A DNA stretch of 21,887 nucleotides from the IMG/VR virus record IMGVR_UViG_2534681878_000037. The stretch is one strand, 5' to 3'. This DNA is from a virus (lineage: Duplodnaviria; Heunggongvirae; Uroviricota; Caudoviricetes). The position numbers were made by a program. Below are positions 15,001 to 18,000 of this stretch, in pieces (within the stretch, counting starts at the first letter, position 1; every line of letters begins with the position of its first letter).

Positions 15001-18000
15001 CCGGGGCGGTTCACTACTTTCGAGAGAGTTCAAAATGTCAAAGATGGTAATACTCTTGCAGCAATAATAAACCATGAGGGATGCCCTTTAAGTAGGCTGC
15101 AGCATAAGAGTTACACTATCTATGGTATGGCGACCCAAGCTAATAGAGCACAAATTGAAGCACTAGAATCTGATGTTTCAACAGTAGTCAAGTGTCTGTA
15201 ATACAATAACCATGATTTAGAACGAACATAATTCTCGCCCGACCAACCGGTCGGGTTTTATACTCGTAGCCTGCTTAATAACACTGTTCCTGACCCGTTG
15301 TATCCATAGTTCCCACTATTTTCCCCCAAATTATTACTATCTAATTAACCTAATAATTAAACCAAAACAAAAGACACTCGATATTTTCTATACGTAACTA
15401 CGCCACATCACCCCATCTGTGAAAAACCTTTTAATTCATAACGTTATATAGAAAACTAAAAATTAAATACACACTTCTACTTTTTGTTGTTGATTTTTGC
15501 TACTTTTAGTAGCATCATTATCTGAACAAACAACAGACTGTTGTTAACGAAAGGTTGGTTGTAACACGGCGTATGGCACATGCGTCGTTAGCGGTCTGGG
15601 GACGTTAAAGGGGACAATCCACTCCTTGCTCGGGCAAACAAACCAGGTAGCCGGAATGTGCAAGTCAATGAGGATGCTGATAAGACGCCTAACCAGCGTG
15701 GCGATTCGGTTTGACGCCTGGGAAGAGACCAGGACGCAACGATGAGAGCATTGACGAGCAAGGCATAAGTGCTGGTTCAATTCCAGACAGTCCCATTCAG
15801 ATGGGAGGGTTGGGCAGGGAAAAGGTCCGTTCGATTCGGACACCGGCAATGCTATCAGCGTTGTGGTGAATGCGCAGGCTGATGCGCGAAAGACATTGCA
15901 GCTATTGCGGAAAAGAGCTGTTCGGCGGGGCAATCAAACGCCCGTGAGAGTCTGAAATAACCGCAAGCCGGAGATCAGCACCGGTCACCACAACAGCCAC
16001 TGCTTTGGCAGTACCAGTTTGTACACTTGCTTCCGGCTGGTACCGCTCTTTTTACAAAACAGAGAAGAGCATCACCGGACGACGGGCTCATAACCCAATC
16101 CATCCGGGCGGCTGCCACCGCAGGTGTTCTTCTCTGTTTTGTGGAGAAACCAACCGACCTTGCAGGGTCGATATGATGAGGAGCAACAAAATGGCTAGCG
16201 AACGCAGTACTGATGTGCAGGCATTTATCGGGGAGCTGGACGGCGGCGTATTTGAAACAAAAATCGGCGCAGTTCTCAGTGAAGTCGCTTCCGGTGTGAT
16301 GAACACGAAAACCAAAGGTAAGGTCTCGCTCAACCTGGAAATCGAACCGTTTGATGAGAACCGTGTGAAAATCAAACACAAACTCTCATATGTTCGCCCG
16401 ACTAACCGCGGGAAAATTTCCGAAGAAGACACCACCGAAACACCGATGTATGTCAATCGCGGTGGTCGCCTGACTATTCTGCAGGAAGACCAGGGACAAT
16501 TACTGACTCTTGCCGGTGAACCTGACGGAAAACTACGCGCAGCAGGTCATTAATATCGTTCTTAATTAACTGATTATTTATCTCATCACTGAATATCTTT
16601 ATATAGTGAGGACTTATTATGTCTCAGAACTTAGACGCAACCGCAATTAATCAAATCCATGCCCTTATTTCTGCTCAGGGTGTTAATGAAATTATCAGTA
16701 AGATTGGTGCCGATGCTGTGGCATTGCCTGAGAATTTCCGCATTCATGATCTGGAAAAATTTAATTTAAATCGCTTCCGTTTCCGTGGTGCGCTTTCCAC
16801 TGCCAGCATCGATGACTTTACCCGTTATTCTAAAGATCTTGCAGATGAAGGCACCCGCTGCTTTATCGATGCCGATAATATGCGTGCCGTCAGTGTGCTT
16901 AACCTGGGTACTATTGATGAACCAGGTCACGCAGATAACACCGCCACTCTCAAACTAAAAAAGACAGCACCGTTTTCTGCTCTGTTGTCTGTTAATGGCG
17001 AGCGTAACTCCCAGAAGTCACTGGCAGAATGGATTGAAGACTGGGCCGACTACCTTGTGGGCTTTGATGCTAATGGTGACGCCATTCAGGCAACAAAAGC
17101 GGCTGCGGCTGTCCGTAAAATCACGATTGAAGCAAACCAGACCGCTGATTTTGAAGATAATGACTTCAGCGGCAAACGCTCCCTGATGGAGTCTGTCGAA
17201 GCGAAGACCAAAGACATTATGCCTGTGGCATTTGAATTTAAATGCGTTCCGTTTGAAGGTCTGAAAGAACGTCCGTTTAAATTACGCCTCAGCATTATCA
17301 CTGGCGATCGTCCTGTACTGGTTCTGCGCATTATTCAGCTGGAAGCGGTGCAGGAAGATATGGCTAACGAATTTCGTGATCTGCTTGTTGAGAAATTCAA
17401 AGACAGCAAAGTAGAAACCTTTATTGGTACTTTCACCGCCTGATTTCATTACTGCAAATGCCCCTGCGGGGGCATTTATGGAAACGTAATTAACTCAATA
17501 ATCACCGGATGGTGATGGCTTCCTTTTACCCAAACTCAGCGCGGTGCAGCGCATATGCGTGGAGAACAAAATGTCATTTATTAAAACTTTTTCCGGGAAG
17601 CATTTTTATTATGACAAGATAAATAAAGACGACATCGTGATTAACGATATCGCGGTTTCCCTTTCAAATATCTGCCGCTTTGCCGGTCATCTTTCTCACT
17701 TCTACAGTGTCGCCCAACATGCGGTGCTTTGCAGCCAGCTGGTGCCGCAGGAATTTGCTTTTGAAGCGTTAATGCATGATGCAACAGAAGCGTATTGCCA
17801 GGATATTCCCGCTCCACTGAAACGCCTTCTTCCTGACTATAAACGGATGGAAGAAAAAATAGACGCCGTAATCCGTGAGAAATACGGGTTACCCCCGGTT
17901 ATGAGCACGCCTGTGAAATATGCCGATCTCATCATGCTGGCAACCGAACGCCGCGATCTCGGGCTTGATGATGGCTCTTTCTGGCCAGTACTGGAAGGTA

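Follow-up and report, generated by a model that had tools for sequence, protein, structure and literature searches.

The window analysed here, that is, the whole stretch of 21,887 nucleotides (nt) in the IMG/VR virus record IMGVR_UViG_2534681878_000037 (Caudoviricetes), is a lambdoid immunity region, read from left to right, in which no credible gene lies between the stop codon of a ParA-family gene at 15201 and the ATG of yfdP at 16191. When examining this interval, we found that its plus strand encodes what comparative sequence analysis identifies as a conserved structured RNA, here denoted RNA1, the first domain of the non-coding leader that follows a putative early-left promoter (pL). Judging from predicted folds, the leader as a whole is a cassette of independently folding RNA domains, namely, RNA1, a long stem bearing hairpins that resemble T-arms, an element shaped like a tRNA, a terminator (E1) and a hairpin with a 24-bp base, followed by the ribosome-binding site of yfdP.

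Gene setting of the leader

The genes of the immunity region and the signals that precede the leader are as follows.

11493-11756, minus strand: cro-like gene
11863-12567, plus strand: cI-like XRE gene
15237..15260, plus strand: intrinsic terminator, analogous to t_imm, closing the cI-ParA (immunity) transcript; 8-bp stem with 6 GC pairs, 4-nt loop, TTTAT tail
15477-15489 and 15500-15512 (15477..15512), plus strand: two repeats resembling the left operator (OL), CTACTNNNAGTAG-type sites 23 bp apart
15497..15524, plus strand: putative pL, read by eye, with -35 TTGCTA at 15497-502 and -10 TATCTG at 15519-24

Downstream of the cI-like gene, the order is the ParA-family gene (split by an insertion sequence), the terminator, an AT-rich stretch, a GC-rich block, yfdP, yfdQ and yfdR; the annotation of a 100%-identical O157 genome places xis and int downstream of yfdR. 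Given the end of the ParA-family gene at 15201 and the start of yfdP at 16191, the true gap is 15202-16190 (989 nt), slightly longer than the interval 15261-16190 that a sequence-only reading of this DNA had described as free of credible open reading frames (ORFs). The ORF lists of the window agree with that description, containing no plus-strand ORF of 60 amino acids (aa) or more wholly inside 15261-16190. The two minus-strand frames that the same reading took to be the only ORFs above 60 aa are indeed present (15544..15933, 129 aa, and 15975..16379, 134 aa), but two others had been overlooked, namely, a 122-aa frame at 16088..16456 on the minus strand, which is antisense to yfdP over most of its length, and, at 16005..16553 on the plus strand, the yfdP frame as extended to a TTG (182 aa). 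The annotated start of yfdP is at 16191 and is preceded by a Shine-Dalgarno (SD) sequence, GAGGAG, at 16178-16183. In the NCBI PGAP annotation, the interval from the ParA-family gene to yfdP is empty, both in the O157 genome of 100% identity and in a relative at 98.8%.

The GC content is 0.29-0.365 over 15300-15599 and 0.48-0.565 over 15500-16199, which matches the earlier description of a GC-rich block next to an AT-rich flank. Moreover, the 660-nt leader folds at -246 kcal/mol compared with -218 +/- 5.7 kcal/mol for shuffled sequences (z = -5.0), a structure considerably more extensive than the several hairpins with 5-bp stems noted previously.

Of the signals that had been claimed upstream of the block, the terminator was found, and the pL/OL reading is supported. 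The hairpin of the first terminator (15237-15256) starts 36 nt past the ParA stop and is followed by a T-rich tail. The operator-like repeats, of the form CTACTT..(A/G)TAG, have the same 23-bp spacing as the copies in the cro-cI intergenic region (11789-801 and 11812-24), with a match count of 11 against 4.6 expected that was reached by none of 100 shuffles. The putative pL aligns with TTGCAT/TATCTT of mEp460. Among the repeats of the AT-rich segment 15202-15540, there is the operator pair only and no centromere-like array that could serve the ParA-family gene.

RNA1 and its distribution

RNA1 is about 180 nt long and comprises five helices, one pseudoknot supported by covariation, and two conserved unpaired tracts of 19 and 17 nt. 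Its parts are the following.

15555..15733, plus strand: RNA1, a pseudoknotted RNA domain supported by a covariance model and by covariation
15567-87, plus strand: helix P1, CGGCRUAU-GGCAC-AUGYGYCG
about 15592-15653, plus strand: helix P2, which encloses a variable hairpin
15646-64, plus strand: 19-mer GGUAGCCGGAAUGUGCAAG, invariant in 12 representatives
between the 19-mer and P4, plus strand: P3, a variable hairpin in the 12-copy MAFFT alignment
15685-99, plus strand: P4, a 4-bp hairpin with a 7-nt loop
P4 loop with 15708-11, plus strand: pseudoknot PK2, in which the loop pairs with GGU(G/U) ten nucleotides downstream
15699-715, plus strand: conserved unpaired 17-nt tract, UGGCGRUWCGGUKUGAC
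15717-33, plus strand: P5, CCUSG-GAAGAGW-CSAGG

The fold is supported by a plain MAFFT alignment of 12 diverse copies, made with no structure guide, in which 98.4% of the cells of the proposed helices are paired, against 27-44% when the partners are slid by one to three columns, and nine pairs are altered on both sides. A covariance model built from the nested helices, with PK2 left outside, scores 120-193 bits at 56 loci, with one copy per locus; the single match in the window (15561-15758) scores 175.6 bits, with an E value of 1e-49. The compensatory changes that the sequence-only reading had suggested looking for in related prophages are, accordingly, present: in an alignment of the 53 distinct RNA1 sequences, fitted to the nested helices, 98.2% of the cells pair and 15 pairs show two-sided changes, against two to four for slid partners, and the observed covariation score was reached by none of 500 shuffles. 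Because the RNA1 sequences are related to one another, the shuffle controls overstate the significance, and the slid-partner controls, together with the agreement of the unguided MAFFT alignment, are the stronger evidence for the fold. PK2, despite its absence from the model, shows an exchange of C-G for A-U (40 versus 10 sequences), and the outer 3-bp part of P2 has been re-registered following a compensating G-C to A-U change in Klebsiella Kp4866-6. A third pseudoknot candidate (loop CUUG with the invariant CAAG) involves an inconsistently aligned loop and a partner that never varies.

G-U pairs account for about one cell in ten (~155 of 1630), U-G being nearly invariant at two positions. 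Since conserved G-U pairs would be A-C mismatches on the other strand, the plus strand is the RNA strand, in agreement with the orientation of the neighbouring tRNAs and operons. Most insertions and deletions among the RNA1 homologues would shift a reading frame (for example, -16, -1, +1, +2), their lengths not being divisible by three, and every frame is interrupted somewhere; together with the near-invariant unpaired tracts and the covarying helices, this leads us to reject the decayed gene that had been considered as one option for the interval.

The GC-rich part, 15545-16190, lies directly between cI and yfdP in mEp460, Ayreon, cdtI and Stx2a_1447, where it either carries no annotation or has been overlaid with ad hoc 'hypothetical' ORFs of one strand or the other. 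Thus, the homologous prophages contain the same non-coding block, or unconserved ORF calls, at the place where an intact protein gene would have spoken for a coding function. The block is a mosaic, with junctions near 15545/15555, 15750, 15857, 15978 and 16005. RNA1 follows cI directly in lambdoid phages of several genera and, at approximately 78-80% identity, is found in three further settings outside the cI-yfdP phages: between trnI and ban in the P1, P7 and SJ46-type phage-plasmids; in the terminase-portal island of the Uetakeviruses phiV10, SPN1S, Tyrion, 65FD and BUCT711; and following the repressor gene in mEp390 and BUCT709. The latter is deposited as a Stenotrophomonas phage, a host label that is doubtful because its RNA1 is nearly identical to that of the Klebsiella phage BUCT711.

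All contexts of RNA1 are phages or prophages. The 19-mer is present in 24 species-representative genomes, 22 of which are Enterobacterales, the remaining two being a chance match inside a gene and a 1.7-kb contig binned as Bacillota. RNA1 itself occurs at 2465 places, at most four per genome, in 1831 of 5426 complete E. coli genomes, and also in 593 plasmids; at these places, none of the listed E. coli rows carries an annotation, and one of the 15 listed plasmid rows reads 'hypothetical protein'. A scan against Rfam, which had been proposed as a check, turned up no family: in Rfam 15, none matches the region, whether the whole window is searched at the gathering score or 15000-16400 and 15540-15870 are searched at E values up to 10, and at 14 related loci the matches are true tRNAs only. 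The invariant sequence was found in no paper, and the literature on yfdP, ymfH, put and antitermination, GOLLD and ROOL, and the P1 transcriptome yielded no description of the element, although coverage of subscription journals was thin, so that an earlier description is possible. Within that scope, RNA1 is an element for which no family, annotation or paper was found. Of the options raised from the sequence alone, a structured RNA or a long leader is, then, strongly supported by the covariation, by the conservation across phage groups and genera, and by the framing between promoter and terminator.

Several local arrangements deserve description. In P1, the unannotated RNA1 (locus L130, 2507-2723; NC_005856.1, ~71018-71234) begins 3-4 nt beyond trnI on its 3' side and serves as leader to a small ORF, the stop of which overlaps the start codon of ban; the C1-controlled ban operon also holds an annotated 'dicF-like region' and two other tRNAs. 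At the Uetakevirus-type loci L133, L147, L152, L158 and L161, a consensus TTGACA with a 17-nt spacer is located ~60-110 nt upstream of RNA1, and a palindrome, ATTACCTNNNAGGTAAT, covers the -10 region just upstream of RNA1, which suggests an operator-controlled promoter for the RNA/tRNA unit. An RNA-like module ending in ...CCGAGCCUGAUGUGGUGAAAAGACAGGC stands just 5' of RNA1 in Kosakonia and Enterobacter prophages (L154, L160) and takes the place of RNA1 in Salmonella phage F1055 (L140, ~2440-2515), and stand-alone P5-like hairpins (UGAC-AGCCNGGAAAGACNGGC) are found in L136 and L153. In Superficieibacter electus (L146, ~4176-4420, minus strand), a tRNA-shaped module with the end ..GCCGGCCACCACAAC runs straight into an RNA1 copy, an arrangement from which it appears that such RNA domains can stand in tandem arrays.

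Domains between RNA1 and yfdP

The domains that follow RNA1 were compared with their counterparts in Citrobacter phiNP, Salmonella F1055 and Klebsiella Kp4866-6.

15737..15863, plus strand: module C, with a 17-bp closing stem (15737-53 with 15847-63)
15772-86, plus strand: hairpin a of module C, loop UUCAAUU
15792-805, plus strand: hairpin b of module C, variable
15825-41, plus strand: hairpin c of module C, loop UUCGAUU, with a purine-rich tract between b and c
15860..15994, plus strand: module D, a tRNA-shaped element with closing stem GUUGUGGUGA / UCACCACAAC
16007..16055, plus strand: E1, an intrinsic terminator, stem 16007-17 with 16037-46 and U-rich tail UCUUUUUAC at 16047-55
16049..16146, plus strand: E2, an extended irregular hairpin: 24-bp stem at the base, conserved interior (CGACGGGCUCAUAACCCAAUCCA), variable hairpin at the apex
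16155..16170, plus strand: E3, a small covarying hairpin, CGACC-UUGCAG-GGUCG

Module C, which is also found in Citrobacter, Salmonella and Klebsiella phages and in SPN1S, has a closing stem that exists in at least six sequence versions across loci, around inserts of differing length. Hairpins a and c carry T-loop-like UUCRAUU loops, whereas hairpin b changes in sequence from phage to phage while the hairpin is kept. RNAalifold predicts 40 pairs in module C, five of them compensatory and all five within hairpin b, and favours another pairing for hairpin a, so that the interior fold of the module is provisional.

The tRNA-shaped module D consists of a 10-bp closing stem, the dinucleotide AU, a D-arm-like GCGC-AGGCUGAU-GCGC (15872-87), a variable interior of ~80 nt and a hairpin at 15968-84 against the 3' strand. 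The closing stem has 8-10 bp in almost all of 53 variants, the overall lengths of which range from 64 to 209 nt, and the D-arm-like stem changes in a compensatory manner, from GCGC/GCGC to GCCC/GGGC, in L157. In phiV10 and SPN1S, the 3' strand of the module C stem leads straight into a true, rare-codon tRNA, tRNA-Arg(UCU), the start of which corresponds exactly to the start of module D. True tRNAs are detected at this place in both phages, but neither ARAGORN at default settings nor the Rfam tRNA model finds a tRNA or tmRNA in the window; no cloverleaf is called, the T-arm-like hairpins of module C are not recognized as tRNA, and ARAGORN with introns and lowered thresholds returns implausible calls only. 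Among the 56 RNA1 loci, nine have a tRNA-Arg(UCU) within 200 nt on the 3' side and 13 have a tRNA with a CAU anticodon (annotated as tRNA-Ile2 in P1) that ends within 60 nt on the 5' side, in each case on the same strand; the other 34 adjoin no true tRNA.

E1 is preserved as a terminator despite a turnover of its sequence. Nine variants were folded, and E1 is the lowest-energy hairpin, with a run of 4-6 U, in the folded variants; the stems have 9-13 bp, and the U run begins within 0-2 nt in eight of the nine, the exception being L086. Four unrelated stem sequences occur among the variants: GGCGGUACCAG, GUCGGCGUC, GGCGGUUAUCCA and GCGGCAUCC. A scan for E1-type terminators finds them in the window, mEp460, mEp390, phiV10 and SPN1S, and in the last three phages the terminator follows the RNA/tRNA unit and precedes the next gene; BUCT709 has a standard terminator there. 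The standard terminator scan missed E1 because its loop exceeds 8 nt.

The boxA-like CGCTCTTTTTA at 16044-54 is confined to the E. coli version and overlaps the terminator tail, orthologous leaders having CGCCCTTTTTA or CGACCTTTTTA (CGCCC/CGACC) at the site. A boxA/nut interpretation of CGCTCTTTTTACAA was set aside, given that orthologues do not retain its GCUCUU portion, which also overlaps the terminator. No boxB-type hairpin was identified in the leader, nor was a convincing nut site recognized.

For E2 and E3, RNAalifold on seven sequences yields 44 pairs, nine of which are compensatory. An A-U to G-C exchange is seen at 16079/16103 in E2. The stem of E3, which lies 7 nt before the SD of yfdP (16178-83; ATG 16191), differs in sequence in Kp4866-6, F1055, L157 and L086. 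E2 and the module C stem are candidate RNase III sites; set against the duplex of ~20 bp or more of near-perfect pairing that is expected for this enzyme, E2 has 24 bp and the module C stem 17 bp.

Some of these domains underlie gene predictions. The K-12 e14 gene ymfH (L006, 2363-2674; window 16005-16180) overlaps sequence homologous to E1 and E2, and its start coincides with the conserved 5' end (GTGGTGAATGC) of the tRNA-shaped module. F1055 carries an SD and a GTG in the ymfH frame, and PHROGs has families for several frames of the region, all of 'unknown function' and built from ORF calls; Pfam has no family for the frames. Two overlapping frames look equally conserved, and the frames are interrupted by stops in Kp4866-6 and by a length difference of 25 nt in phiNP; ymfH-type ORFs are therefore probably artefacts of the conserved RNA. 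The sole Arg/Lys-rich ORF of the plus strand (15863-15955, 30 aa, VNAQADARKTLQLLRKRAVRRGNQTPVRV) opens at the 5' edge of the tRNA-shaped module. With no SD, and cut to 9-10 codons in F1055 and L149, it is improbable as an N-like peptide, and the earlier statement that the interval holds no Arg-rich N-like ORF stands.

Other elements of the window are recorded here for completeness. The ParA-family gene is split by a 1.3-kb IS3-family insertion sequence (~13702-15015), which carries two transposase ORFs that overlap, 13758-14084 and 14081-14971, as well as, at 14039-14155, an ALIL frameshift pseudoknot (Rfam RF01497). In NZ_CP022050.2, the ParA-family gene is unbroken (361 aa). Two small RNAs adjoin each other on opposite strands, namely, AgvB at 3389-3448 on the plus strand (56.6 bits, barely over the cut-off) and STnc100 at 3450-3663 on the minus strand (190.7 bits). 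The 3' hairpin of module D in e14 and L007 (CACCGGGAGGCACCCGGCACCA; L007 ~2455-2485, e14 locus L006) is 20 nt long and near-identical to the STnc100 hairpin (window 3490-3520), which hints that prophage small RNAs and leader modules may exchange parts.

Possible functions of the leader

The map slot of RNA1 is that of N and nutL in phage lambda, with cI, a terminator, OL/pL, an antitermination function and the early-left genes in this order, but there is no Arg-rich N gene between pL and the early-left genes. Perhaps the most relevant precedent is HK022, a lambdoid phage without N in which a cis-acting antiterminator RNA, put, is encoded immediately after the early promoter and ahead of the terminators of the operon; put binds the zinc-binding domain of the beta' subunit of RNA polymerase, suppresses termination with no need of protein factors, and consists of ~70 nt in two stem-loops, in two similar copies, putL at pL and putR at pR (PMC9378689). 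RNA1 is similarly located just after pL, ~25 nt past the predicted start and behind the OL-like repeats. By contrast, RNA1 has ~180 nt, helices P1-P5 and the pseudoknot PK2, is single in each phage, with no second copy in the 21.9-kb window including the pR side, and also stands beside tRNAs in P1 and the Uetakeviruses; furthermore, the RNA1 model finds only a 5.3-bit chance match, in a tail gene, in the whole HK022 genome. The put-like element that had been proposed for this interval is, therefore, apt as an analogy of position and possible role, and RNA1 may work like put, but by size, fold, copy number and lack of homology RNA1 is not a member of the put family.

Our favoured, tentative reading, to which we give somewhat less than an even chance, is that ~15531-16190 on the plus strand makes up the 5' portion, non-coding and extensively folded, of the early-left (pL) transcript and provides RNA-based, N-independent control of terminator read-through. 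Under this scheme, when the cI-like repressor leaves OL, RNA polymerase would make the leader first, and RNA1 would fold just behind the polymerase. RNA1 would then modify the elongating polymerase, or a factor riding with it, such that E1 and later terminators are read through and the early-left genes from yfdP to int, which lie beyond E1, become accessible. In this way an RNA would stand in for the N protein that the phage lacks, as an analogue of HK022 put that has no kinship with it. RNase P and RNase III would cut at the tRNA-shaped element and the long duplexes, and the cuts would separate the RNA domains from the mRNA and shape the translation of yfdP.

The preservation of a terminator between the promoter and the genes, through a full turnover of its stem, points to regulated read-through. 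RNA1 is ~270 nt upstream of E1, with self-closed domains in between, so that control by alternative pairing is unlikely; by analogy with put, an effect on the elongating polymerase, or on its rider factor, is the most likely mode of action. The conserved unpaired tracts of 19 and 17 nt would fit binding to a host machine that is conserved across the Enterobacterales. The same reading is supported by the location of RNA1 right after a cI-type repressor gene and promoter region in mEp460, Ayreon, Stx2a_1447, mEp390, BUCT709 and the window, by its presence inside the C1-repressed ban operon of P1, and by its position after a TTGACA promoter with a palindrome (read by eye) in the Uetakevirus-type loci.

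Several observations weigh against this interpretation. All functional statements are inferences from sequence, including those on transcription, read-through and polymerase binding. The strict consensus promoter scan did not call the putative pL, which was placed by eye, and for this reason the start near 15531 is likewise deduced. The fold stability of RNA1 alone is not significant (z = -0.55), and another pseudoknot, PK1 (the GGCAC loop with GUGC), which is a possibility, shows no covariation and is broken in L161. Moreover, phiNP and F1055 retain modules C to E together with E1 but have other upstream RNA modules in place of RNA1, which implies that E1 has partners besides RNA1. A distance of ~2.3 kb separates RNA1 from Pban in P1, where no terminator was found between RNA1 and ban. 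There is one copy of RNA1 per phage and none on the pR side. Finally, the succession of promoter, RNA1, tRNA or tRNA-like element and terminator also reads naturally as a self-contained RNA gene.

The last point leads to the main rival explanation, which we consider possible but rather doubtful, namely, that the locus is a self-contained RNA gene unit from which processing releases RNA1 as a stable, trans-acting RNA linked to tRNA or translation. Such an RNA could support rare-codon tRNAs, act as a decoy for host defences that target tRNAs, or sponge a host factor, and would be an enterobacterial counterpart of GOLLD and ROOL, large structured RNAs without an assigned function that are found near tRNA genes and in prophages and are possibly co-transcribed with tRNAs (PMC5737381). 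The shared genomic context is apparent, since RNA1 resides in prophages and adjoins a tRNA at 22 of the 56 loci, always on the same strand (nine at the 3' and 13 at the 5' side), although at the majority of loci there is no true tRNA beside it. The likeness goes no further than context: the locus is a string of separate, shuffled domains in Enterobacterales rather than one large fold, and the GOLLD and ROOL models of Rfam give no match, at the gathering score or at E values up to 10. The order of RNA1, long stem, tRNA and terminator in phiV10 and SPN1S, the tRNA-shaped element that occupies the tRNA position in the window, and the domains, which have closing stems of their own and are exchanged whole between phages, all fit a released RNA. 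In the lambdoid setting, however, the unit has no promoter of its own and is located in the leader of the early-left operon, where the conserved terminator calls for an explanation through the downstream genes.

Phages also encode other RNAs of this general kind. The tRNA cluster of phage T4 includes stable RNAs (species 1 and 2), and the C4 RNA of P1 and P7 is processed by RNase P. These are non-tRNA RNAs of phages that are co-transcribed with tRNAs or tRNA-shaped and are released by tRNA-processing enzymes; in the comparison made through Rfam, which includes C4, there is no match in the region. DicF, STnc100/PasD and AgvB/AsxR are, similarly, non-coding RNAs from early or accessory regions of E. 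coli prophages but are short base-pairing RNAs, whereas RNA1 is compact, pseudoknotted and aptamer-like and matches none of their models.

It is unlikely that the domains are a processing and stability device only, in which the hairpins would be sites for RNase III, RNase P or RNase E and provide 5' protection for the yfdP (or ban) message, RNA1 itself being inactive. This explanation draws on the 24-bp duplex of E2 that immediately precedes the yfdP ribosome-binding site, on E3 next to the SD, on the 17-bp stem of module C and on the position of RNA1 in P1, where, directly after trnI, it is the 5' untranslated region of the small ORF coupled to ban, but such a device has no need for 19-nt and 17-nt unpaired tracts, a pseudoknot, or conservation in three unrelated phage groups.

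Distinctly unlikely is a riboswitch-like sensor, that is, RNA1 as an aptamer for a metabolite, an ion or a signalling nucleotide that tunes early-left expression. The invariant junction nucleotides, variable peripheral hairpins and pseudoknot, in a 5' leader after a promoter, do have the look of an aptamer. No adjacent expression platform is apparent, however, ~270 nt with closed domains separating RNA1 from the nearest terminator; the immediate neighbours of RNA1 in P1 and the Uetakeviruses are tRNAs and not a regulated gene, and no known riboswitch model matches.

A role of the palindromes at the level of DNA, as recombination linkers, remnants of attachment sites in tRNA genes, or a small element with terminal inverted repeats, is very unlikely. 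The sharp junctions of the mosaic block (15545/15555, ~15750, 15857, 15978 and 16005), the conserved inverted repeats that bound modules C and D around variable cargo (CAAC...GUUG; GUUGUGG...CCACAAC) and the resemblance of the T-arm-like hairpins to 3' halves of tRNAs are what would be expected of such elements. Palindromic DNA does not account for nested helices with a pseudoknot, compensatory changes and G-U pairs that would be mismatched on the other strand, or for an order and orientation that are fixed relative to promoter, tRNA and terminator, and no target-site duplications or scattered copies were seen. Least probable of all is a hidden small protein or a decayed gene, such as a YmfH-like peptide at 16027-16176 or the 30-aa ORF: notwithstanding the K-12 annotation of ymfH over the homologous e14 sequence, the PHROGs families and the start signals in F1055, the frames are broken as described above, and the compensatory base-pair changes fall in the same nucleotides.

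The control of lambdoid early operons is a textbook system; to our knowledge, there are many lambdoid prophages of E. coli, Salmonella, Klebsiella and Citrobacter without an N gene in which the passage of early terminators is unexplained. RNA1 offers a concrete candidate, between pL and a conserved terminator, that can be mutated, and its occurrence, unannotated, in P1 and in 1831 of 5426 complete E. coli genomes makes it easy to test. The analysis also flags probable mis-annotations, namely, K-12 ymfH and several 'hypothetical proteins' in phage records. It is possible, although at well under an even chance, that RNA1 represents a new class of functional phage RNA, either a protein-independent modifier of the polymerase that replaces N in a large group of lambdoid phages or an RNA linked to tRNA that interacts with a conserved host machine; in that case, the pL leader in its entirety would amount to an 'RNA operon' of shuffled structured domains. 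Should RNA1 act on the polymerase, antiterminator RNAs would gain a second example with no relation to the first; should it act in trans, it would be a genetically tractable enterobacterial counterpart of the tRNA-associated prophage RNAs.

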